Positions 18,147 to 31,418 of a DNA stretch of 46,202 nucleotides are shown one piece after another (positions within the stretch are counted from its first letter, which is position 1; every line of letters starts with the position of its first letter). The DNA comes from a phage. The DNA lies in NCBI GenBank assembly GCA_025043315.1, contig GCA_025043315.1_4324.1; one strand, written 5' to 3'. The notes under the pieces are model-generated. The model did no database searches and was not told the origin of the DNA. It was given only the letters and a program-made list of their open reading frames with translations. The position numbers and the translations under genes were made by a program.

Positions 18147-18632
18147 ATGAATGCAGTCGACAAGCGAACCATTAACGGTAATAACGGAACCATCCGCACT
18201 GAAGACAAAAAACAACGGAAACGACCTTCAGGTTACTACGTTTTGAAAGATGAGGTAAGGGCGGGTTTACGTGCGCGGCTGGAAATTGTTCTTGATTTCT
18301 TCGGCACAAAGGCAAATATGGCAAAGCAATTAAAGGTAACACCACAGGCTGTAGAGGAATGGTTTAAGCGCGGTATGATTTCTGCGCGCGGGGCTCAACT
18401 CTCACACAACTACTACAAGCGAACAGGGGAAGGCTTTCGCGCCACATTCTGCCGACCAGATCTGCAATTCGACGGAAACGGCAAGCCTCTTACTCTACGT
18501 TGCAAAAAGCGTCACATGCTGCGTGTTGTTACTGAGGCTGAATTAGCCACCAAGCCAGAGTGTCGATCATGGCGCAAGATTAAGGAAGAGAATCGCAAAA
18601 AGCGAGAAGCAGAGACAAATAGCACGAATTGA
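18147..18632 (+). CDS. HTH DNA-binding protein (Cro/YdaS-like), candidate regulator
   Basis: HTH-like TKANMAKQLKVTPQAVEEWFKRGMIS; basic N-terminus. Confidence 0.5.
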   Translation: MNAVDKRTINGNNGTIRTEDKKQRKRPSGYYVLKDEVRAGLRARLEIVLDFFGTKANMAKQLKVTPQAVEEWFKRGMISARGAQLSHNYYKRTGEGFRATFCRPDLQFDGNGKPLTLRCKKRHMLRVVTEAELATKPECRSWRKIKEENRKKREAETNSTN

Positions 18633-18662
18633 TAAACAATGGCGCTATGCATTGTGTATAGT
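18620..18662 (+). promoter_or_regulatory. palindromic promoter module (TAGCACGAATTGATA 18620-18634; TATAGT 18657-18662)
   Basis: 22-bp spacer; palindrome overlaps stop of upstream gene. Confidence 0.55.
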
Positions 18663-19213: not shown

Positions 19214-20133
19214 AATTTTATGATAAGAAAGAGGTATTGCCAAGAATGATGGGGATGTGGAAGGATGCCCTCATAAACATTTGTGATGCGCCTGAGAGCT
19301 TCTTTAATGGCAAGCACCAGCCATGCCTATATTGTGGAGGTCGGGATCGGGCTAGATGGACTGATAACCTATCTATAAAAGGTGACGGCGGAAATATATG
19401 CAATCAGTGCGGAAACGACACTGGAATAGGGTTGATGATGAGGCTTACTGGAATGAACTACAGTGAGGCCATAAATGTATTAGGTGACTGGCTCAACCTT
19501 ATACCTGCAGAGGTTATATCAAAAGCAAACAAAAGAGCATCTCGTACATCACCATACAAAATGGGCGCCCAGATTGATCACGAAAGATGCTTAGAGATAA
19601 TGGAAAGGACGGAAAGAGTAGAATCAACTCCGCTCAGTACATATGAGGGTATCTATAGCGAGTTTGGTTTTGATGTTGGCAGGACGAAATCAGGCGAATT
19701 AATACACGCAGTACCGTGCTTTATGGCTTATAATGATGGCATATCAGATGATATGTGCAATGTGATGTTTATCAATGAAGAGGGAGATGTTAGTTATGCT
19801 GCAAAAGATTATACTCGCCAGTCTGTGGCTGTTATTGGTTCCTTTAAGGATGATGAGTACGCTTACCTGGTCGATAATTGGGTTGATGGTGTTCGCGTTC
19901 ATCTTGCTACTGGCAACCGCAGCGTGCTTGTTTGCCACTCCAGCTACAACATGGAAATGGTTGCTTATGCGCTTAAAAAATACAAGTTACGCGTCGCTTG
20001 TACTATCCACGATTTTGATTTACTTGCCGTTGCTGACGATCGCAATCTTGATGTTGTAATGCCAAATGATGATAATTTTTTCAAGTCAGGAATAAGAAAG
20101 AGAATATACAAGGCAAGCGAATTACTAAACTAA
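19210..20133 (+). CDS. putative DNA primase with N-terminal zinc ribbon
   Basis: C-x2-C...C-x2-C (CLYCGG...CNQCGN); replication-module position. Confidence 0.5.
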   Translation: MKFYDKKEVLPRMMGMWKDALINICDAPESFFNGKHQPCLYCGGRDRARWTDNLSIKGDGGNICNQCGNDTGIGLMMRLTGMNYSEAINVLGDWLNLIPAEVISKANKRASRTSPYKMGAQIDHERCLEIMERTERVESTPLSTYEGIYSEFGFDVGRTKSGELIHAVPCFMAYNDGISDDMCNVMFINEEGDVSYAAKDYTRQSVAVIGSFKDDEYAYLVDNWVDGVRVHLATGNRSVLVCHSSYNMEMVAYALKKYKLRVACTIHDFDLLAVADDRNLDVVMPNDDNFFKSGIRKRIYKASELLN

Positions 20134-20156
20134 CCTCCTTCGGGAGGTTTTTTTAT
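20133..20156 (+). terminator. rho-independent terminator (CCTCC-TTCG-GGAGG plus T7)
   Basis: hairpin 20135-20148 then T-tract. Confidence 0.7.
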
Positions 20157-20181
20157 GCATTAAAGATGATACAATCCACTT

Positions 20182-20196
20182 TAGCAATTCGTGCTA
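20182..20196. promoter_or_regulatory. palindrome TAGCAATTCGTGCTA without the usual -10/leader, upstream of tail fibre gene
   Basis: exact palindrome core; no TATAAT-like hexamer at the 22-bp position on either strand. Confidence 0.4.
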
Positions 20197-20221
20197 AACA
20201 ACAATATAGGAATTGATTATT

Positions 20222-22579
20222 ATGGCAATTTATGACTTAGGAACCGCATCGCTAGCCGCGAATGGCGAAGTGACTGGCGTAGGAACAACATGGAAGGCAC
20301 CACTTACACTGATCAGAGTTGGTGCAACCATCGTATTTAAAACTGAACCAGTACAGATTTACACCATCTCAGAAATCATCAGCGATACGCGGATTAATGT
20401 TTACAACCCTAATTCTGAAACTGTTCCTGCTGGCACTGGTTACGCGATTCTTGCGCACGACGGGATTACCGTCCAGGGTTTAGCTCAGGATGTTGCCGAA
20501 ACTTTGCGCTACTATCAGTCAAAAGAGACCTCAATTGAGTCATTAATTGAAATAATTGAAAACTCAGATATTGATGTTATTGATGGCAAAATTCAGGAAA
20601 TGCAGCAAATTCTAAGTAGCACAATGGCAGCCGAAGGATCAGCAAAATCCAGTAGTGATAGCGCTCTTGAATACAGTAATAAATCAATAAGCAGCGCTAA
20701 TGAGTCAAAGTCTGCAAGGGATGAGGCTGTAGCCGCTAAGAATTCGACAATTGAAGCGATTAATAACGCAGGAGATGCAGGTACACTAGTGACATTATCT
20801 GGTTCTAATGGGGCATCACTTATTGGAACCACTGATGGTTCAACCATTCAGGACGAGATTTCGAGTCTTAAAGCCAATGGGGCTTCAATTATTCGAACCA
20901 CTGATGGTTCAACCATTCAGGACGAGATTTCGAGTCTTAAAGCCAATGGGGCTTCAATTATTCGAACCACTGATGGTTCAACCATTCAGGACGAGATTTC
21001 GAGTCTTAAAGCCAATGCTGGAAATCTTAGGGCAGAACTAGCTTCTGATAATGGATTTAATATCGTCAATTACAAGAGGCCTGGTGTTAATGGTTCTGTA
21101 ATTAATTCGCTATCTACCAGGTACGCTTACACTTTAGACGCCGTGGCTGATTTCGGAGCTGACCCAACAGGTTCAACAGATAGTTACGAAGCATTGCAGG
21201 CGTGGGCGAACGCATGTGTTGCTGGGCCATGGGCTACAGGAACTATTAACGGAATATTCAGGATCAGTAAAACACTTGAGTTCGCCAATATCGCTGGATT
21301 GACCATTATTGCTAACTGTTACATATACCCAACTTTCGAATCTGGCGATGCTGTGATTCGCTATCGCAATGGCCAGGGTCTTCGTGTTTACGGTCGCTTT
21401 GAAGCGTCAGGTCAGAATAAGATAGGTATCCGTGCGGCTCATAAGATTTACACCGATAATGATAATGGTTTTAGCTTTTCCTACCTATATGGTGCTTGCG
21501 CTAGTGATGCTCTTACTGGTTTCGAGTTTGGTGACGCGGCTTATCCTAGCGGTCTAGTTTCCGAAATGTCACTGATTGGTGGTTACTCAGTGGGGTGCCC
21601 ATGCGCGGTTCGAGCTATAGGTTCCCAGTGCTATATTAACTTGGATGGATTCGATGCTGTGTCTGGAGGGGTGGGTGATCTTAGTTCCGTTACACAATAC
21701 ACCATTCATGTAAAGGGGGCTAATGTTAAAGTTCGTGGCGGTGAGATTCAGCACAATAATAATATCTACGGAGCTAGCATTCTCGTAGAGCCTCAAACTG
21801 ATCCTCTTTTCAATAATCAGTTCGGAAGCATTGAGGTTAATGCTTGCCATGTTGAGACAGCAGCGCAGCTGTGTTTTATTGCGAATCTTGATGGTGTGGA
21901 ATCACCTAAGAGTGATTTTACTAATATTTCATTTAAAGGACTGCGTGGTTATCACTCCCAGGATAACGGACCATTTATTAGCACGCACTCAACTGCCATT
22001 GAAAGTAACTATTCTGGAACCATTAGTTGGGCTAATATGTCTGGAATGCACTGCGGAGTCACCAGAACACAGCCTAACATACAGGCTGGGAGTCTATCTA
22101 GAGTGTACTACGACGAGACATATGGTGCTGGGTTCCGTAAAGGATTACAGTCTGTATCTGGCGGTATATTGCACTTTAGTCGTAGGCCTGTATGTATAGC
22201 TCAGAACACAGGTGGACAGACTCTTACTGCAGCCACTGACAAAATAATTTGGGGGGGGCTGGTTTCAACTGACGACTCTTACCGCTGGAACGCACAGTAC
22301 AGCGGGGGTACATTTACAGTGCCAGCGGGTGGTTTAAAGGATGTTCACGTTCATGCTGTAGCAAGGATTGACACAAATGTTCAGCTTAGTATGACTGTTT
22401 TCGTAGACGGCGGCGCACAAAGTTTGGCTATACCCAGCGCGGGAGCGGCTGAGCTTAATGCATTCCTTGGTGATTTAGATGCGGGTAGAGAAATTGAGAT
22501 CAGAGCTAGTGTAAGTCCAGGTTCGGCTATTTTGAATGGAGGTTATTTTGAGAGGATGACTATTACTGCATCAAGGTAG
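20222..22579 (+). CDS. tail fibre / tailspike protein with three tandem 23-aa repeats
   Basis: 785 aa from ATG at 20222 (track 788 aa from TTG 20213); repeats GASxIxTTDGSTIQDEISSLKAN x3; C-terminal Gly/Asn-rich region suggestive of a beta-helix. Confidence 0.7.
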   Translation: MAIYDLGTASLAANGEVTGVGTTWKAPLTLIRVGATIVFKTEPVQIYTISEIISDTRINVYNPNSETVPAGTGYAILAHDGITVQGLAQDVAETLRYYQSKETSIESLIEIIENSDIDVIDGKIQEMQQILSSTMAAEGSAKSSSDSALEYSNKSISSANESKSARDEAVAAKNSTIEAINNAGDAGTLVTLSGSNGASLIGTTDGSTIQDEISSLKANGASIIRTTDGSTIQDEISSLKANGASIIRTTDGSTIQDEISSLKANAGNLRAELASDNGFNIVNYKRPGVNGSVINSLSTRYAYTLDAVADFGADPTGSTDSYEALQAWANACVAGPWATGTINGIFRISKTLEFANIAGLTIIANCYIYPTFESGDAVIRYRNGQGLRVYGRFEASGQNKIGIRAAHKIYTDNDNGFSFSYLYGACASDALTGFEFGDAAYPSGLVSEMSLIGGYSVGCPCAVRAIGSQCYINLDGFDAVSGGVGDLSSVTQYTIHVKGANVKVRGGEIQHNNNIYGASILVEPQTDPLFNNQFGSIEVNACHVETAAQLCFIANLDGVESPKSDFTNISFKGLRGYHSQDNGPFISTHSTAIESNYSGTISWANMSGMHCGVTRTQPNIQAGSLSRVYYDETYGAGFRKGLQSVSGGILHFSRRPVCIAQNTGGQTLTAATDKIIWGGLVSTDDSYRWNAQYSGGTFTVPAGGLKDVHVHAVARIDTNVQLSMTVFVDGGAQSLAIPSAGAAELNAFLGDLDAGREIEIRASVSPGSAILNGGYFERMTITASR
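20811..21017 (+). repeat. 3 x 69-bp in-frame tandem repeat inside tail fibre gene
   Basis: units 2 and 3 identical, unit 1 differs at a few positions. Confidence 0.9.
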
Positions 22580-25524: not shown

Positions 25525-25850
25525 CTAAGCCCAGCTATAGCTCAATGTAACCGGCGTGTATATCGTGTATATCATTTATTGCTGATGGTGTATTGGTATA
25601 GCTGCCGCACAATACTGTATAAATCCACATGATATTAAAATTATAACCGGAACACTCTATAGAAGTAGTTACATGATATACACAGTAATATATATAATAA
25701 TAATAATAAGAGTAAAATGTTGATATATATAGATATTTTAATGTAACTAATGCGTAAATTGGCGTAACAGGGCGTATATCATTTTCCGCGGATGAGATTG
25801 TATACATCGAGTTACATCGGTTACGTGTAACTGTGATTTGTGGTGAATTT
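25515..25850. promoter_or_regulatory. regulatory region B, diverged homolog of region A, with short (TA)n/(AAT)n tracts
   Basis: shared blocks with 7205-7540; GTTACG boxes; AT-rich simple repeats at 25680-25730. Confidence 0.5.
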
Positions 25851-25859
25851 GGCGATAAA

Positions 25860-25902
25860 TAGCACTAATTGCTAAAGGAATCTGACTGTCTTTAGGTATA
25901 TT
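25860..25902 (+). promoter_or_regulatory. palindromic promoter module (TAGCACTAATTGCTA 25860-25874; TATATT 25897-25902)
   Basis: 22-bp spacer. Confidence 0.55.
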
Positions 25903-26004
25903 TATGCGCATGGCGGCAATGGTGTCGTCATACAACCTGAATTTCAGGCTTAACATCAAATCATGACCCAAATTTGGGTCATGAAAAACAGAAGAGAGAT
26001 TAAA

Positions 26005-26244
26005 ATGAACTTAGCCTTACTTAATGAAGATGTAAAAATGAATAGTTATGATTTTTTGAATAATGTTGTCAACCCAGCCAGAGAGGTGGCAGGAGAGTCA
26101 AAGCTGCGTCACAACTGGTTTCTTGAAAAAATTGTGGATGAGATTGGTGCTGAAAATTTGTGCTACCGAAAATCGGTAGCGCAAAATACGAGCAACCAAA
26201 TGGCAAGGAGTCAGAAAATTGATACTGTAGATTTAAACATGTAG
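26005..26244 (+). CDS. N-terminal part of a Rha-like regulatory protein, ends at in-frame TAG
   Basis: AREVAGESKLRHNWFLEKIVDEI resembles the Rha-domain core as I recall it; start chosen at third ATG with AGAGAGATTAAA leader. Confidence 0.4.
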   Translation: MNLALLNEDVKMNSYDFLNNVVNPAREVAGESKLRHNWFLEKIVDEIGAENLCYRKSVAQNTSNQMARSQKIDTVDLNM

Positions 26245-26247
26245 CAA

Positions 26248-26673
26248 ATGCTTCTTGTTGGAATGCGTGAGTCAAAGGCAGTTCGCCTAGCGGTTCTTGA
26301 TAAGCTTAAGCAGATGCAGGCCACCATTAAAAAACAAGCAGAAGTAATCAGCCAGATGGTAAGTATTGATGAACTAAAAGAGGCGAGAATGATGCTTGGT
26401 GTAGCTAATGCGCAGAATGCACATCTTAGCCAGCGCATTGTTGCAGAGCAAAGAATAAATGAGATCTTACTCATGGATAAGAATACCGATGAAAAGCTCG
26501 ACATGCTGGCTTGTGAGGCTCGCCAGTGCTGGGTTAGCCGCTCTGATGAGATGGAGGAAAGATTTAAGTATGAAGTGCAATGCTTCGCTCTTAAAGAAAA
26601 GACGGACGCACTGACCGGATTAATTGAGAATGAGCTAGGTATTGATATTAAGCTGTTGCTCGAAAAGAAATAG
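26248..26673 (+). CDS. C-terminal part of the same Rha-like reading frame (141 aa), in frame with 26005..26244 across TAG-CAA
   Basis: same frame as upstream ORF, separated only by TAG at 26242-26244 plus CAA. Confidence 0.45.
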
Positions 26674-26713
26674 CACTAATTGCTAAACACTGGTCGCAAG
26701 GATGCGATACTAT
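26671..26713 (+). promoter_or_regulatory. palindromic promoter module (TAGCACTAATTGCTA 26671-26685; TACTAT 26708-26713)
   Basis: 22-bp spacer; leader TACTCCATCGAAACGAAACGAAC. Confidence 0.6.
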
Positions 26714-26753
26714 TACTCCATCGAAACGAAACGAACTTACTAAGGAACATAAA

Positions 26754-26999
26754 ATGACTAACTTAATCAAATCAGTAATCATCGCCGCAGCAGTAATCAT
26801 GGCAGTTGGTTGTTCTTCCGGTCCTCGCCCGGATGGTTGGTGTGCAACCCAAGCAAACGGCGTATGCGTGGCTAAGTGGGAAGGCGGTGTAGTTGTTCCG
26901 GCTGGTGAGCTTGATGTTCGCTACGCCGGAATTGAAAGCAAGGCCGGAGGCGGTTACGGTGGGTCAGTTGCAGATCATGGTTCTAAGGAGTGGAAATAA
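26754..26999 (+). CDS. small lipoprotein (candidate superinfection-exclusion protein)
   Basis: signal peptide plus lipobox MAVGC; 81 aa. Confidence 0.7.
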
Positions 27000-27961
27000 T
27001 GCCACAGGGTATTTTAATCGACCTTAATGATGGAAGGCCAGCTATGGAGATTACTGCGGGGCTAAGAGCACCCGCCGTGACCGGCTCAATAAACACGAAT
27101 GGACTTTCAACCCCAGCAAGTTCGTGGGATTTTGGATTGACAATGTCTCCTGGCTCTACGGCTTTCTGCCTACCAACGAAAGCAGTCCACGTTGACACTT
27201 ACGATGTTATACCCGAAGTTTATTACATGAACGGGTTTCAAAAGGTAAATGACGGAACTGGCAGGATAACGCTTAGCAACTTCAATGGTGCCAATGGTCG
27301 AATAATTGACTTTGCGGGTAATTGTTTTGAAATTCTACCAGCATCATCTTCATCAAGCCCAGGGATACTCGTTGAGAACTCAACTGATTTCCTTGCTATA
27401 TCAAGCAACTCGAGACTAATGTCAGCAGCATGGGTTGGAGGCATACAGGTTAACGGGGCGGCATCGCTACCAGTTAGCGGCATACCATTCGGCAAGTGGG
27501 ATAATCCAAACGTATCACTTGAATCAGATGGATCAACAATATGGTGTAGGGATATAACCTACGGAGGTACAGATGATGTTGCGGCAAGTACTTATGTTCA
27601 GCTGGTGATATTCAGAAATGAACCCCCACCAGCCGGACCAGGACTAACAATGTCGAATAGTTCTGGTCAGATTGTTTTTTCCAGCGTTAGACGACCATTT
27701 GTTCTTGGTGGATTCATTCAGATCAACAATGGATACCAGTCAATAAATGGTGGATTCTTCCCGCTGCTCAGATGCGGCGCTACGACTAGAGTTACTGGAG
27801 GGTATAACAACTTAAGATACAAGGGGGTTTGCATGTCTGGTGGTAACGTTAGAGCAGTACCAGGTACTGTAATTGGTAACTACTCAACTCAGACTGGCGC
27901 TCAGTTCCCTTTCGACACAAATATATCAATGGCACTTCCATTTATTCCAAACTTCTACTAA
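26998..27961 (+). CDS. hypothetical protein, possibly fibre/receptor-binding-like, translationally coupled to the lipoprotein
   Basis: ATG overlaps lipoprotein stop (TAATG) with AAGGAG SD; Gly/Ser/Asn-rich 320 aa. Confidence 0.45.
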
Positions 27962-27992
27962 AAGAAAAGCCCCAATTAAGGGGCTTTATTTA
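27961..27992. terminator. bidirectional rho-independent terminator (AGCCCC-AATTAA-GGGGCT)
   Basis: hairpin 27968-27985 flanked by A- and T-runs between convergent genes. Confidence 0.7.
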
Positions 27993-30900
27993 TTACCACA
28001 CTCCAACTACCACTCTTCCTCCGTTCGGTAAGTTTACAGTGATTCCGTTATTGTTAATCTGGACCGTGTTATTAATTCCGTTAAATGCGAAGTTACCATT
28101 ATTGGCATACAGGTTACCCCTTACAGTGGCGTTATTAAATTCCGCACTTCCTGACTTGTCAATCGCCCATCCTTGAGAGCCAGCAACGTAGTTGTTAGAT
28201 TGAATCCTGTTACCAATCTTCGCGTTAGTAATTGAGCCATCGCCAATTACCGCGCTTTGGATGATTACGTTTCCGTTCTCTACAACGAAGGGGAGTTGCC
28301 ACTGACCGGAACCAGAACCAATGCCGTTACTGATTGCGAATCTGTTTGCGTCAAAAATGAACTGACTGCGAACGTTTCCACCAGTGCCAACTAGCTCCAT
28401 GCTCATGCCGGATGAATAAGTCTGACCATTGTATTTCAGGCCAAGGCTAATTCCGTACTGCACGCCAGTTGATGTGGCATTAGAGAATGCGTCTAACTTC
28501 TGGTTTAGAGCCGCCTCGTTTTCGCCAAGTCTTGCTGATAGAGCCGTGTCTGCAGTAGTTCTTGCTTCTGTCTCTGTGGCTAATGCAGTCTGAACTTCTG
28601 TAATCGACGATACAACTTCATCATCTATCTGTGCTTTAAGGGCTGTTAGAGCCTCTACGCGCGCCTGAGTTTCATCTGCTATGAGATTAACTGCCTGAAC
28701 ATATTCAGCCTTACGTTTGCCATTCTCCTTTGTCATTCTGCGAACATCGCCATCATTAGCCAATGCGTTCTCGATAATTGCCTCGGCTTGATTCTGAATG
28801 TCCTGGTTTTTCTCAATTGCATTCTGCTCGAGATATTTGAATCCTTCAGAACCCTCGATATCAACCTTGATGTAATCATTGATGATGTTGGCGTCGTCAG
28901 TACTCATGCCCCTAGCGAAATAAGACCAATCAGAGGTATTGCCAATTCTGTCAATCAATCTTGCACGATACCAAATGACCTTGCCTGGTTGAATCGGCGC
29001 GTGCCAGTATTCATAGGCTGGATAAGGCAGTAACGTCAGCAAACTTGCGTTATCAGGATTATAAGTACCGTCACCATTATCAGGAACCTGCTGAAGTTCA
29101 GTGTAAGCAGTATCACCAGATCCTTCAGGAAATCCCCATTTAACACGGATGCCAAATACTTCATCAGTTGATGCAGTGATAACTGTAGGCGCAGATGGGC
29201 GGCCAATCTTACCAGTTAGCGATACAGTTACAATGTCAGACCAGGCAGACACGTTTTCAGTATCTGATACGCTGCGAACCCTAACGTCATAGATTCCTGC
29301 GTAAATACCTTCGATATCAACCTCTGTGCTAGCTGTTCTGGGTACGTTAATCCAGTTGCCATTCTCTTTTCTCCACTGAACATTGTAGGTTTTTGCGTAT
29401 GGAGCTTTATCCCATCCGATAACCATCGTCTCAACTGATAAGCCTTGAACAACCTTACTGTAGCTTGACACTGTTAAATTCTCAGGCGGCGACAATCTGT
29501 CAGGCTCTACGATTGAAGTCGGACGATCAACAATGTTAACGCCGTAGTCAATCTCGTCATACTTGTTAGGGTCATACTCTACTGCGGTAATTGTATACTG
29601 GAATGAGTCCGAGCCGTCGGAATCCGCTTTTTGAATCCCGGTCACAACATACTGCTGAAGCGCCAGATTATCCTTATCGATTGCGAATACAGTATCAGGC
29701 TGAGCTACAAAGCTGAAAGCTGTGTTCAGGTTAATCGTCCTACCATCATCAGATACGCTTGCAATGGTTCTTGCCTCCGGACTTCCGTCAGGCTTGTTCA
29801 GAAGAATTCTGTCACCAGGCTCTGCGTCAACTTTAAACGGGGTAAAAACCTGCAATCCCTGAACTGATTCAATACGACCGGAAAGGTTTAACTGATAGTT
29901 GCTGGACCATGCCGCGTCATTGACCGCAATAACCTCACCAATCATCGGAATCATACCTTCCAACCCGGTAGTGAAGCTGATAGTTTCGCTTCTTAGGTTG
30001 GTTTTCAGGAGCCATCTTCCGCGTCTGTTTGCTTCACTTCTGCGAGTACATCCAATCGCAGTTAAATCTACAGGGTTAAATCCAAAACGACGAGTTGCCT
30101 CCAGCTCGAATACTGTCTCAACATCCTGCTGATAGTTGTTCTCCACATCATCAAACTGAACGTTTGCGGTAGTGTAAAGACTTTTATCACTGGCAAATGT
30201 GCGGCTGAATAATCCATTAACGACGTTATCATTCGTGAAGATGTAAGATGGATTACGAGGTTTGTCGACAACAATACCAATCTTTTCGCCATCGTAGAAA
30301 GTTAAGCCACGGAAGATTGAGCAGATATCACGAATTAGTGTGTAGGCCTCAACTTTATTCTGGACAACCATGTCGCATAGATATCGCGGCTCCATACCAC
30401 CCTTACCATCTGGAACCATCTGGTCACAGAATTGCGCGGCTTCATACAGGCCCCACTTATCAATCTCTACACCCAACTCTCGCTGATCAAGACCGTAGCG
30501 GCGGTTTGTCACTAAGTCATAAAGAACCCACGCAGGGTTATTTGACCATGCCATTTTAAATAGACCATTCCATGTGCCACTATAAGTTCTGCTTTCAGGG
30601 TCATAGTTTGTAGGAACCTGAATCAACTTCCATCGCTTCTTGATAGAGATTGTCGGGATACCGTTAGGAAAAAGGTCAGAGCCAAACTCAACGTAAACAA
30701 GAGCCGTAAGCGGATAGCGGAATTTAGCGTCGATTACTTCCTGATAGGTTGTAATCTGCATCCCGTTTACCAGCGTGCTACTTGTCGAATCTGGCGTAAT
30801 CTTACGGATACGAACCAGGGCGCTATCAAATTCAGCCGGAAGGTTTACACGAATGCTGCGGTCGTAACCTGTAGTTGTCTTCCCGTTAGCAACTCCTCGA

Positions 30901-31418
30901 GTATATTCCTGGTAAGCGCCACCATTAACAGAAATGTCTATCGCGTACTCGCATGTGGTTCCGTTCAGATCGCCATTACTTTCTTGCTTAACCAGCCTAG
31001 GCCAATATAGCTTTACACGAATCGCTGATAGCTGAGTATTGTTAACCGCAATGATGTACGGGGTATCGTTCGTGATTTCTCTGGAGGCCTGAATCTCTGA
31101 GTTAGCACCATCAAGCCCAGCGATATAGTCCTGATACTGCGTACCAGCACGGAACTCAGCGCGAACACCTTCATAGTTGTAGCTACCATCCTGATTTTGT
31201 ACCGGAACGTCAGCAAGGTATAAATCCTTCATTGAGAAGTTTGAATCTACCTCTCCGTCAGCGACAGCAAGCAACACCTTAACCTTGTTTAATGAAATAA
31301 GGTTGTCTTCTTGCTCCACTGGTTGATGCGGCTTCTGACTACCACCCTTAGCACCATAAATCTTAATATCTTCAGCCATATCACAAAGCCTCATGTTTGT
31401 TTTGATCATTTGTGCCAT
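27993..31418 (-). CDS. tail tip / central fibre protein, lambda J-like
   Basis: 1141 aa; segment GAKGGSQKPHQPVEQEDNL resembles the lambda J N-terminus as I recall it; follows I, K, L, M; true start may be ATG at 31379. Confidence 0.8.
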   Translation of the reverse strand: MAQMIKTNMRLCDMAEDIKIYGAKGGSQKPHQPVEQEDNLISLNKVKVLLAVADGEVDSNFSMKDLYLADVPVQNQDGSYNYEGVRAEFRAGTQYQDYIAGLDGANSEIQASREITNDTPYIIAVNNTQLSAIRVKLYWPRLVKQESNGDLNGTTCEYAIDISVNGGAYQEYTRGVANGKTTTGYDRSIRVNLPAEFDSALVRIRKITPDSTSSTLVNGMQITTYQEVIDAKFRYPLTALVYVEFGSDLFPNGIPTISIKKRWKLIQVPTNYDPESRTYSGTWNGLFKMAWSNNPAWVLYDLVTNRRYGLDQRELGVEIDKWGLYEAAQFCDQMVPDGKGGMEPRYLCDMVVQNKVEAYTLIRDICSIFRGLTFYDGEKIGIVVDKPRNPSYIFTNDNVVNGLFSRTFASDKSLYTTANVQFDDVENNYQQDVETVFELEATRRFGFNPVDLTAIGCTRRSEANRRGRWLLKTNLRSETISFTTGLEGMIPMIGEVIAVNDAAWSSNYQLNLSGRIESVQGLQVFTPFKVDAEPGDRILLNKPDGSPEARTIASVSDDGRTINLNTAFSFVAQPDTVFAIDKDNLALQQYVVTGIQKADSDGSDSFQYTITAVEYDPNKYDEIDYGVNIVDRPTSIVEPDRLSPPENLTVSSYSKVVQGLSVETMVIGWDKAPYAKTYNVQWRKENGNWINVPRTASTEVDIEGIYAGIYDVRVRSVSDTENVSAWSDIVTVSLTGKIGRPSAPTVITASTDEVFGIRVKWGFPEGSGDTAYTELQQVPDNGDGTYNPDNASLLTLLPYPAYEYWHAPIQPGKVIWYRARLIDRIGNTSDWSYFARGMSTDDANIINDYIKVDIEGSEGFKYLEQNAIEKNQDIQNQAEAIIENALANDGDVRRMTKENGKRKAEYVQAVNLIADETQARVEALTALKAQIDDEVVSSITEVQTALATETEARTTADTALSARLGENEAALNQKLDAFSNATSTGVQYGISLGLKYNGQTYSSGMSMELVGTGGNVRSQFIFDANRFAISNGIGSGSGQWQLPFVVENGNVIIQSAVIGDGSITNAKIGNRIQSNNYVAGSQGWAIDKSGSAEFNNATVRGNLYANNGNFAFNGINNTVQINNNGITVNLPNGGRVVVGVW

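Follow-up and report, generated by a model that had tools for sequence, protein, structure and literature searches.

Organization of the locus

A small lipoprotein gene and a second gene encoding a protein of 320 residues lie in tandem at this locus, within the window, i.e., the whole stretch of 46,202 nucleotides of phage DNA that was analyzed (Table 1). Both are found on the + strand and converge on a gpJ-like gene, which is located on the - strand together with the remaining tail operon; the second gene and the gpJ-like gene are separated by 31 nt. The stop codon TAA of the lipoprotein gene (26997-26999) overlaps the ATG of the second gene (26999-27001) in the form TAATG, with AAGGAG at 26984-26989, 9 nt upstream of this ATG. 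The lipoprotein gene has a Shine-Dalgarno sequence of its own, TAAGGAA, at 26741-26747. The terminator scan places a hairpin, common to the two-gene unit and the gpJ-like gene, between the convergent genes and calls no terminator between the lipoprotein gene and the second gene. An earlier note on this DNA had described an 81-residue lipoprotein with a lipobox, the TAATG coupling, and a position opposite the tail operon, and these descriptions hold for the open reading frames, the overlap, and the strands given here, with the two units converging on the hairpin.

Table 1. Coordinates of the features at the lipoprotein-receptor-binding protein (RBP) locus and of the candidate regulator
Feature	Position	Strand	Remarks
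Palindromic promoter/operator module AATAGCACTAATTGCTAAA (TAGCA-N5-TGCTA)	26669-26687	+	Lipoprotein ATG 67 nt downstream; promoter role proposed
-10-like hexamer TACTAT	26708-26713	+	Exactly 20 nt past the module and directly 5' of the conserved leader
Conserved leader TACTCCATCGAAACGAAAC	26714-26732	+	Directly 3' of the hexamer TACTAT
Superinfection-exclusion lipoprotein gene, Rtp45 family (predicted)	26754-26999	+	81-residue precursor, 62-residue mature protein
RBP gene, LptD-type DUF6453 allele (predicted)	26999-27961	+	320 residues
Bidirectional intrinsic terminator hairpin AAAGCCCCAATTAAGGGGCTTT	27966-27987	both	8 stem pairs, T-rich tails on each side
GpJ-like central tail fiber/tail-tip protein gene	27993-31418	-	1,141 residues; presumed docking partner of the RBP
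Rtp52 homologue, helix-turn-helix regulator gene	18147-18632	+	92% identity to Rtp52 (E=6e-112); candidate module binder

The GpJ-like protein matches the Pfam families FNIII-A_GpJ, Phage-tail_3, and Phage_Tail_Tip and, in PHROGs, phrog_31 ("central tail fiber J"). It shows 96 to 100% identity with Rtp43 except for the last ∼90 residues, with 74 to 82%, and this C terminus covaries with the RBP allele. The same synteny, a lipoprotein gene followed by an RBP gene and converging on gpJ, is found in Rtp, Oekolampad, OzMSK, and G8. By sequence, the phage backbone is that of an Rtp-like coliphage (Drexlerviridae) with a swapped RBP allele. The gene upstream of the palindromic module varies: it is split and anti-repressor-like here, a DNA methylase gene in OzMSK, and an intact anti-repressor gene in G8. 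In lytic siphophages, prophages, and podophages, the DUF6453 gene always adjoins a gene with a Phage_Tail_Tip domain. In Kuravirus/phiEco32-like podophages, both the lipoprotein and the DUF6453 protein have homologues, whose genes are unlinked, and the DUF6453 gene of Kuravirus adjoins a tail needle gene with the same Phage_Tail_Tip domain as GpJ.

The lipoprotein

The 81-residue protein covers the complete profile of the Pfam family PF24052 (Phage_lipoprotein; positions 1 to 80 of 80, E=5.7e-38) and is assigned to phrog_4281 in PHROGs. The lipobox pattern of the PROSITE PS51257 type spans residues 10 to 20, with Cys20 as the lipidated cysteine, and in the translation of the open reading frame the first 20 residues are followed by SSG. 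The n-region contains Lys6, and the residue at position +2 is a serine and not an aspartate. Sorting of lipoproteins by the Lol system of E. coli follows the +2 rule. Owing to the serine at this position, sorting is expected to place the protein in the inner leaflet of the outer membrane.

Pairwise comparisons show identities of 91% with OzMSK_039, 80% with Rtp45, and 40% with the Oekolampad lipoprotein. Rtp45 as contained in the PDB entry 9rps_D is matched with E=1.5e-34. Cysteines are present at positions 20, 30, and 38, so that the disulfide pair Cys30-Cys38 of Rtp45 is conserved. Across residues 20 to 43, the only difference from Rtp45 is N35 in place of S35; an insertion of five residues, SKAGG, is found near the C terminus. 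The stretch from residue 20 to 43 includes residues 30 to 35, which form a conserved strand pairing with LptD in Rtp45 (PMC12685063).

The predicted receptor-binding protein

The 320-residue protein matches PF20051 (DUF6453) with E=4.5e-139 (residues 4 to 297, profile positions 1 to 291) and the RBP of Oekolampad from the LptDE complex (PDB 9rpt_C) with E=3.6e-67 over residues 2 to 320. Global alignments give identities of 96.9% with OzMSK_038, 45% with the Oekolampad RBP, and 41% with Rtp44; the identity reaches up to 98% with Veterinaerplatzvirus T145P1 and is 90% with AHP24. In comparison with OzMSK_038, the Oekolampad RBP, and Rtp44, the protein thus lies within the LptD-type RBP family, defined by >30% identity over >99% coverage (bioRxiv 10.64898/2026.04.02.716166). 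Invariant residues are clustered at the N terminus (M1, G4, I7, N10, D11, I18, and R23). The family is labeled [quoted passage not shown] in phrog_1265. Several GenBank records likewise name RBP homologues "membrane protein."

An AlphaFold2 model built on an alignment of 69 homologues reaches a pLDDT of 87.6 and a pTM of 0.86, compared to a pLDDT of only 29.7 for single-sequence AlphaFold2. The model is all-beta and contains no transmembrane helix. In a Foldseek search against the PDB, its sole significant match is 9rpt_C (E=1.5e-21, probability of 1.00, target TM score of 0.90); all other matches have E values of >0.3, and no fiber or spike structure is significant. In the model, the protein is therefore a compact all-beta fold like the solved RBP of Oekolampad, and not a fiber. 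The homologue from OzMSK is described as two lectin-like beta-sandwiches (PMC13035648). The earlier note had called the protein rich in glycine, serine, and asparagine and fiber-like. The composition is as described, with these residues as the three most common (12.2%, 10.0%, and 7.8%, respectively); the fiber-like character is contradicted by the structure prediction. A trimeric tail fiber or tailspike was accordingly dropped as a candidate identity after Foldseek gave no significant fiber or spike match.

Putative promoter module and candidate regulator

The palindromic module upstream of the lipoprotein gene was found by reading the sequence, followed by a pattern search of the window, which contains 15 copies at up to 3 mismatches, compared to 0.01 expected by chance. 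A 19-mer identical to the copy upstream of the lipoprotein gene is also found at 25858-25876. In the alignment of the 15 contexts, 13 to 14 copies show a hexamer similar to TATAGT, TATAAT, or TATGAT exactly 20 nt past the module, and downstream of the hexamer those copies carry the conserved leader, then a Shine-Dalgarno sequence, and finally an ATG. Module copies precede replication genes and structural genes alike. The same module is located upstream of the genes for the lipoprotein homologues in OzMSK and G8, and a degenerate copy is located upstream of rtp45. A generic sigma-70 scan calls no promoter upstream of the lipoprotein-RBP pair because the module has no -35 box at the canonical spacing, and the repeat search at default sensitivity missed the palindrome with its 5-bp arms. 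The earlier note had the lipoprotein gene driven by its own palindromic module; the module is indeed present in front of the gene, and from its arrangement we infer that it acts as a promoter and drives this gene.

The Rtp52 homologue encoded elsewhere in the window is a candidate for the protein binding these modules. For Rtp52, the annotation gives a transcriptional regulator whose helix-turn-helix spans residues 53 to 74, and the homologue shows a subthreshold match to a Cro-like helix-turn-helix at residues 48 to 72. Wietzorrek and coworkers reportedly linked inverted repeats to Rtp52 in 2006, which would support a connection between regulator and palindrome.

Proposed function in LptD recognition and exclusion

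The region very probably represents the LptD-type host recognition module of an Rtp-like coliphage, consisting of an RBP and an exclusion lipoprotein. The reading as a pair of exclusion protein and RBP, put forward in the earlier note, gains support from characterized homologues. As described in PMC12685063, the cryo-electron microscopy structure 9RPS shows Rtp45 on the periplasmic side and in the lumen of LptD, with extracellular loop 4 displaced and RBP binding blocked. The complex in 9RPS is composed of Rtp45 bound to LptDE-LptM. The same source describes the RBP of Oekolampad as purified in soluble form and attaching to LptDE on the extracellular side (PDB 9RPT). OzMSK requires loop 11 of LptD for infection and is unable to infect the lptD mutants Δ(Y658-Y678) and Δ(L394-V396) (PMC13035648). 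Seven phages of the BASEL collection with this type of locus selected lptD mutations, and the authors of that study (Maffei et al. 2021; PMC8594841) describe a [quoted passage not shown] beside gpJ, with this allele tied to LptD. The available text of PMC12685063 contains no plating assay for the resistance of cells expressing a lipoprotein of the Rtp45 family.

A multistep mechanism can be proposed on this basis. The unit would comprise two translationally coupled genes, served by a phage promoter module of their own and sharing a terminator with gpJ. [quoted passage not shown] Its beta-hairpin is expected to rise through the lumen of LptD and displace extracellular loop 4, so that LptD would be held in a conformation refractory to the RBP. 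This lock would block superinfection and keep progeny from being lost on the debris of lysed cells. With its invariant N terminus, the RBP would most likely dock on the GpJ-like central fiber at the C-terminal tip of the latter, and its loop-bearing end would reach far into the open barrel of LptD. As the terminal receptor, LptD would then commit the phage to DNA ejection. That both proteins behave as do their homologues, together with the docking of the RBP on GpJ, protein sorting, and expression timing, is what we infer.

Alternative explanations

With an unchanged molecular mechanism, the lipoprotein might be made late, together with the RBP, and serve mainly to prevent the irreversible adsorption of freshly released virions to LptD on cell debris instead of acting in early exclusion. 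Such a role was reportedly proposed for Rtp45 by Wietzorrek and coworkers in 2006, by analogy with Llp of T5. Guarding against adsorption to cell fragments is among the roles of exclusion factors listed in PMC12685063, and the lipoprotein gene is cotranscribed and coupled through TAATG with a virion structural gene, with no terminator between them. Modules lie before replication as well as structural genes, so that expression of the unit may extend over the whole of infection, which speaks against this explanation, and one role does not preclude the other. This explanation is a serious possibility, if somewhat short of an even chance. A different question is whether the lipoprotein blocks FhuA in the manner of Cor or Llp, as could be concluded from its size, lipobox, and genomic position, which are like those of T1 cor, and from the annotation of the vB_Ec-G8 homologue as "Cor superinfection exclusion protein." The BLASTP alignment with T1 Cor extends over only 38 residues with 29% gaps, hardly beyond the signal peptide and lipobox, and T1 Cor reaches 17.3 bits on PF24052, under the cutoff of 27 bits; the genes for the FhuA-type RBP of T1 belong to no Pfam family and are not related to DUF6453. 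A function as an FhuA blocker is hardly credible in light of these results, and membership in Cor was rejected, as BLASTP and PF24052 reveal no homology of the mature protein to T1 Cor.

For the RBP, sequence divergence could have led to an outer membrane receptor other than LptD. The identity with Rtp44 and the Oekolampad RBP is only 41 to 45%, RBP loci recombine often (PMC8594841), and some Rtp-like phages also need NupG, via a GpJ domain (bioRxiv 10.64898/2026.04.02.716166). Against a change of receptor stands the 96.9% identity with the RBP of OzMSK, which depends on LptD loop 11. Moreover, the receptor-specific RBP families known from this locus, four in all, are unrelated to one another, the 320-residue protein falls squarely into the LptD family, and its partner belongs to the LptD-targeting lipoprotein family, so that another receptor is very unlikely. 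The protein could also be a nonstructural membrane protein or moron and no virion component at all, in line with the PHROG and RefSeq labels of the family and the GenBank records mentioned above. Gel-band proteomics of AHP24 identified seven major structural proteins, and the RBP homologue is not among them, which fits a nonvirion protein; this absence is probably due to low copy number, and for a tip protein present in few copies the result is uninformative. An all-beta model without a transmembrane helix, the solubility of the purified Oekolampad homologue and its attachment to LptDE on the extracellular side, and the constant position of the gene beside a Phage_Tail_Tip-domain gene in siphophages, prophages, and podophages make a moron extremely improbable. 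The LptD-type recognition module, with an RBP and a cognate exclusion lipoprotein, is thus retained as the preferred interpretation.

Wider implications

The two-gene module of the LptD type has been described before (Maffei 2021; Black 2025; Dunbar 2025), and the main value of the analysis for this window is annotation, with no new biology beyond those studies. The annotation is useful for picking phage-resistant production strains, such as those with a deletion of LptD loop 11, and for designing phage cocktails. Neither protein of the pair has a match in NCBIfam or PADLOC, and these searches give no entry for the pair among catalogued bacterial defense systems. The uneven divergence of lipoprotein and RBP on the Rtp backbone bears on cross-exclusion between LptD phages and could matter more than the annotation. 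Lipoproteins of the Rtp45 type might form a generic lock of LptD that excludes phages with any DUF6453 RBP allele, a tentative idea that we consider possible but on balance doubtful. Such a lock would explain why the lipoprotein is 80% conserved compared to Rtp while the RBPs have diverged to 41%. The relationships of the Kuravirus proteins suggest that these podophages may use LptD, a use so far unreported and likewise of potentially greater weight than the annotation. If the generic lock proved true, the use of LptD as terminal receptor would be much more widespread than recognized and would include Kuravirus/phiEco32-like podophages.

Comparison with known systems

The closest characterized systems are Rtp44/Rtp45 and bas18_0025/bas18_0026 from Oekolampad (PDB 9RPT, 9RPW, 9RQI, and 9RPS), in which both families, DUF6453 and PF24052, are the same as here. 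The locus further resembles them in gene order, the convergent site by gpJ, the lipobox, and the pair Cys30-Cys38, and the RBP fold fits 9rpt_C. In contrast, the RBP shows only 41 to 45% identity, and its allele is exchanged on an otherwise Rtp-like backbone. Near-identical alleles are found in OzMSK_038/OzMSK_039 of vB_EcoS_OzMSK/MSK, Rogue1, ACG-M12, and Veterinaerplatzvirus.

A similar logic is known from pb5 (Oad) and Llp of T5, which, according to PMC12685063, combine an RBP at the tip of the central fiber with an adjacent outer membrane lipoprotein that disables the receptor from the periplasm. The receptor of T5 is FhuA, a TonB-dependent transporter, compared to LptD in the Rtp45-type systems. 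As stated in the same source, Llp works by long-range allostery, whereas proteins of the Rtp45 type physically displace LptD loops. No Pfam or PDB match ties the lipoprotein or the RBP to Llp or pb5.

Cor of T1, phi80, and N15, with the FhuA-type RBP locus (gp31, gp32, and gp30 in T1), occupies the same slot beside the gpJ homologue. Here too, a small lipoprotein is encoded on the strand opposite that of the gpJ homologue, but the proteins of the RBP locus are unrelated, and the similarity of Cor to the lipoprotein is found only in the signal peptide. In lambda, LamB is likewise a terminal outer membrane protein receptor recognized at a GpJ-like tip, although by the C-terminal domain of GpJ itself instead of a separate RBP (PMC8594841). 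LptD, in this case that of Pseudomonas, is also used at the GpJ-like tail tip by gp54-gp56 of DEV.

Identification of the lipoprotein and the receptor-binding protein

The 81-residue lipoprotein matches the Pfam family PF24052 (Phage_lipoprotein; E=5.7e-38) and chain D of the structure 9RPS (E=1.5e-34). The 320-residue protein encoded directly downstream matches PF20051 (DUF6453; E=4.5e-139) and, through residues 2-320, chain C of 9RPT, 9RPW and 9RQI (E=3.6e-67). According to Dunbar et al. (PNAS 2025; PMC12685063), the source of these structures, the exclusion lipoprotein Rtp45 of phage Rtp is bound to the periplasmic side of LptD, the LPS exporter of the host outer membrane, between LptE and LptM. 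A hairpin of Rtp45 extends up the LptD lumen and shifts extracellular loop 4 by up to 20 Å, a displacement not compatible with binding of the receptor-binding protein (RBP). The earlier reading of the pair as an exclusion lipoprotein and an RBP is supported by homology at the sequence level, the homologues being Rtp45 and the Oekolampad RBP, both solved with LptDE.

Further phages connect this type of RBP with LptD. Two lptD loop-deletion strains are not infected by OzMSK, in which gene 038 has been annotated as coding for a putative LptD-binding RBP (PMC13035648), and Maffei et al. tied an RBP allele of this type to LptD via spontaneous lptD mutants (PMC8594841). A 2026 preprint confirms that the RBPs encoded at this locus fall into four unrelated families, specific for FhuA, BtuB, LptD and YncD, with a family threshold of >30% identity over >99% coverage, which the window RBP passes (bioRxiv 10.64898/2026.04.02.716166).

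Anatomy of the gene pair

The lipoprotein ORF and its lipobox are exactly as the earlier note had described. Residues 10-20 fit the PROSITE-type lipobox pattern with Cys20 as the lipidation site, the n-region holds Lys6, and the +2 residue is Ser. The claimed overlap of the two genes is likewise present, one base being common to the stop codon TAA (26997-26999) and the ATG of the RBP gene (26999-27001). The RBP gene shows an AAGGAG motif 9 nt 5' of the ATG. An alternative GTG start at 26990 in the ORF listing was rejected, as homologues do not start there. The description of the protein as rich in Gly, Ser and Asn is borne out by its composition (12.2%, 10.0% and 7.8%), and the pair lies, as claimed, on the strand opposite to the tail gene. 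Only 31 nt separate the end of the RBP gene from the stop of this convergent GpJ-like gene.

Coordinates of the gene pair, its surroundings and homologous loci
Feature	Position	Strand	Remarks
Lipoprotein gene	26754..26999	+	81-aa ORF
RBP gene	26999..27961	+	320-aa ORF
GpJ-like gene	27993..31418	-	1141 aa; FNIII-A_GpJ, Phage-tail_3 and Phage_Tail_Tip domains; PHROG 'central tail fiber J' match
Hairpin	27966-27987	both	single hairpin scored as intrinsic terminator in either direction
Hexamer TACTAT of lipoprotein gene	26708-26713	+	from module alignment
19-mer copies (start positions)	3788, 4632, 5386, 6108, 7725, 9087, 9633, 15621, 18618, 20180, 23802, 25858, 26669, 33250, 38436	own orientations	form AATAGCAC-N-AATTGCTAAA
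Rtp52 homologue	18147-18632	+	92% identical to Rtp52 (regulator with helix-turn-helix annotation)
DUF6453 and needle locus, phage SU10	L008:11089-13090		gp18, gp19
Gordonclarkvirinae locus, phage 101114UKE3	L007:4818-5852		gp023
Klebsiella phage Domnhall (MN013075.1)	19702-20655; 30302-30481		RBP homologue; lipoprotein homologue

Fold of the RBP and alternative assignments

A database search with the 320-residue protein returned 112 homologues from phages and enterobacterial prophages, all with DUF6453. A single-sequence AlphaFold2 run (pLDDT 29.7) was replaced by one based on a 69-sequence alignment, which gave a wholly beta model with a pLDDT of 87.6 and a pTM of 0.86; the N-terminus and a Ser-rich loop at residues ∼111-140 are of low confidence. 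In a Foldseek search against the PDB, the single significant match of this model is 9rpt_C (E=1.5e-21, probability 1.00, target-normalised TM 0.90), and no fibre, spike or beta-helix structure was matched. The protein is thus an RBP without fibre-like character, and the fibre part of the earlier proposal does not hold. The 97%-identical OzMSK protein has been modelled as two lectin-like beta-sandwiches with loops at one end (PMC13035648). Invariant columns of the family alignment are concentrated in the first 25 residues, a pattern that fits a putative docking surface for the tail tip; the OzMSK authors likewise argue for docking of the RBP to the tail tip through its N-terminus (PMC13035648).

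The PHROG and RefSeq labels of this protein family, 'membrane protein / moron', are contradicted by the all-beta fold of the model and by the Oekolampad homologue, which was purified in soluble form and binds LptDE extracellularly (PMC12685063). That the window protein uses a receptor different from LptD is very unlikely, as it is 97% identical to the RBP of OzMSK. Membership of the lipoprotein in the Cor or Llp type was weighed as a rival and, for Cor, is rejected: the alignment with T1 Cor is confined to the signal peptide, T1 Cor stays under the cut-off of PF24052, and the proteins of the FhuA-type locus of T1 are unrelated to the window pair.

Exclusion by the expressed lipoprotein is strongly predicted, and the accessible published text on Rtp45 contains no plating assay of cell protection by a lipoprotein of this family. 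The lipoprotein may serve chiefly to protect progeny from debris late in infection or, alternatively, in early exclusion; its cotranscription with a structural gene, to which it is also translationally coupled, would favour late coexpression. The RBP is not listed in the gel-band proteomics of the close relative AHP24, as expected for a low-copy tip protein.

A palindromic promoter-like module

The lipoprotein gene has its own palindromic module, as the earlier note stated, in the form of AATAGCACTAATTGCTAAA (TAGCA-N5-TGCTA) at 26669-26687, the first bases of which lie inside the stop codon of the upstream gene. The module was seen on reading the sequence and not detected by the repeat finder at default settings. 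It is one of 15 copies of the 19-mer in the window at ≤3 mismatches, compared to 0.01 expected, and the bare palindrome TAGCA-N5-TGCTA occurs 12 times. With the copies aligned in their own orientation, a TATAGT/TATAAT/TATGAT-like hexamer is found exactly 20 nt downstream in 13-14 of the 15, followed by a conserved leader (..TTACNCCATCGAAACGAAAC..), a Shine-Dalgarno sequence and the ATG; the copy at 20180 (- strand) is without a clear -10 hexamer. The palindrome is centered at about -42 relative to the start site deduced from this hexamer. A -35 box at canonical spacing is absent from the modules, and a generic sigma-70 scan called no promoter at the lipoprotein-gene module. Such a geometry would fit a promoter that depends on an activator rather than one with canonical -35/-10 boxes, and it suggests that the modules are activator-dependent phage promoters located 5' of replication genes as well as structural genes.

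The homologous lipoprotein genes of OzMSK and vB_Ec-G8 (G8) are preceded by the same module and rtp45 by a degenerate copy. A candidate binder of the palindromes is the homologue of the Rtp regulator Rtp52, the 3' end of whose gene is overlapped by the copy at 18618-18636. Wietzorrek et al. are said to have linked Rtp52 in 2006 to ten conserved inverted repeats in Rtp.

Mosaicism and genome context

The phage is a Drexlerviridae-type coliphage, with best DNA matches of 87% identity over 72% of the first 25 kb of the window. The order lipoprotein gene, then RBP gene, convergent on gpJ, is also found in Rtp, Oekolampad, OzMSK and G8. The GpJ-like protein and its Rtp counterpart, Rtp43, are 96-100% identical throughout, apart from the C-terminal ∼90 residues (27993-28260), where identity drops to 74-82%. 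At the DNA level, the lipoprotein gene is 81-85% identical to Rtp; identity then falls to background (38-58%) from ∼27020-27080, just past the conserved N-terminal codons of the RBP gene. What several phages have in common with the window is limited to the promoter module, the lipoprotein gene and ∼70 nt at the start of the RBP gene. Recombination boundaries seem to fall within the C-terminus of GpJ and directly behind the ∼25 conserved codons that open the RBP gene. The divergence pattern therefore indicates an Rtp-like backbone with an OzMSK/Rogue1-type LptD-RBP allele, in agreement with Maffei et al., who reported that RBP loci are exchanged horizontally (PMC8594841).

Upstream of the lipoprotein gene, an anti-repressor-like gene (25963-26673, + strand) is split by an in-frame TAG at 26242-26244. 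Its C-terminal 136 residues (ORF 26248-26673) are 86% identical to the intact 217-residue anti-repressor of G8; the upstream ORF (25963/26005-26244) shows no similarity to the N-terminus of that protein and no Pfam match. A sequencing error, a replaced domain or decay to a pseudogene may account for the split. The 19-mers on the two sides of the cassette (25858 and 26669) are identical. In Rtp (L004:9940-10060), ATATCATTTTCCGCGGATGAGATTGTATACATCGAGTTACATCGGTTACGTGTA directly precedes the rtp45 promoter module, and the same segment precedes the 25858 copy in the window. The same slot 5' of the lipoprotein gene contains a DNA methylase in OzMSK and an intact anti-repressor in G8. The slot (25780-26687) resembles a site of exchangeable cassettes, for which the promoter modules may have served as recombination points.

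The only copy in the window of a perfect 24-bp palindrome, TCATGACCCAAATTTGGGTCATGA, lies at 25961-25984, where it overlaps the ATG of 25963; on the - strand it is scored as a terminator-like hairpin. Next to it, ∼430 bp (25525-25960) of apparently noncoding DNA, high in AT and containing short tandem runs (ATAATAATAATAA, TATATATA), separate the divergent gene blocks of the - and + strands and may have a regulatory or origin-like function.

Homologues outside the Rtp-like coliphages and comparison with known systems

Gordonclarkvirinae (Kuravirus-like) podophages carry an Rtp45-family lipoprotein gene in the early region. In phiEco32, gp106 (L006:2426-2707) is a clear Rtp45 homologue (PF24052, E=2.4e-36) and matches the window lipoprotein with a BLASTP E value of 8e-18. 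Kuravirus and phiEco32-like podophages also have a DUF6453 gene, located directly behind that of the tail needle. In SU10, its product gp19 matches PF20051 (E=2.2e-23) and aligns with the siphophage RBPs with an hhalign probability of 99.3% over 295 columns, and the tail needle gp18 contains the Phage_Tail_Tip domain that GpJ has at its C-terminus. No mention of gp19 is made in the paper on the SU10 structure. The BASEL expansion paper gives the O-antigen and LPS core as receptors of the Kuravirus-like group, and the N4-like phage DEV was the first podovirus proposed to use LptD (January 2026 paper). The Kuravirus needle tip may bear a DUF6453 RBP targeting LptD. As homologues of both proteins are present and a literature search found no Kuravirus-LptD link, LptD use by these phages is a testable and apparently unreported hypothesis.

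In lambdoid prophages of the Enterobacter cloacae complex (L009:2502-6966, L010:2502-6966), a DUF6453 gene begins 2 nt past the stop codon of gpJ, in the same orientation, and a side-tail-fibre-like gene comes next. No PF24052 lipoprotein gene was called near it in either prophage; therefore, the RBP and the exclusion lipoprotein are not always linked. Klebsiella T1-like phages carry homologues of both proteins, with ∼31% identity for the RBP and ∼63-65% for the mature lipoprotein, and the two genes lie on the same strand ∼10 kb apart. These homologues hint that Klebsiella phages use LptD as well, with the genes arranged differently.

In global alignments, the window RBP shows 96.9% identity with OzMSK_038 and 95.6% with the G8 homologue, compared to 45% with the Oekolampad RBP and 41% with Rtp44, the RBP of Rtp. 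The lipoprotein shows identities of 94% with the G8 homologue, 91% with OzMSK_039, 80% with Rtp45 and 40% with the Oekolampad lipoprotein. The gene pair is a known, structurally characterised module and not a new one. The disulfide cysteines 30 and 38 of Rtp45 are kept in the window lipoprotein, and the main difference between the two proteins is a 5-residue insertion (SKAGG) near the C-terminus of the window protein.
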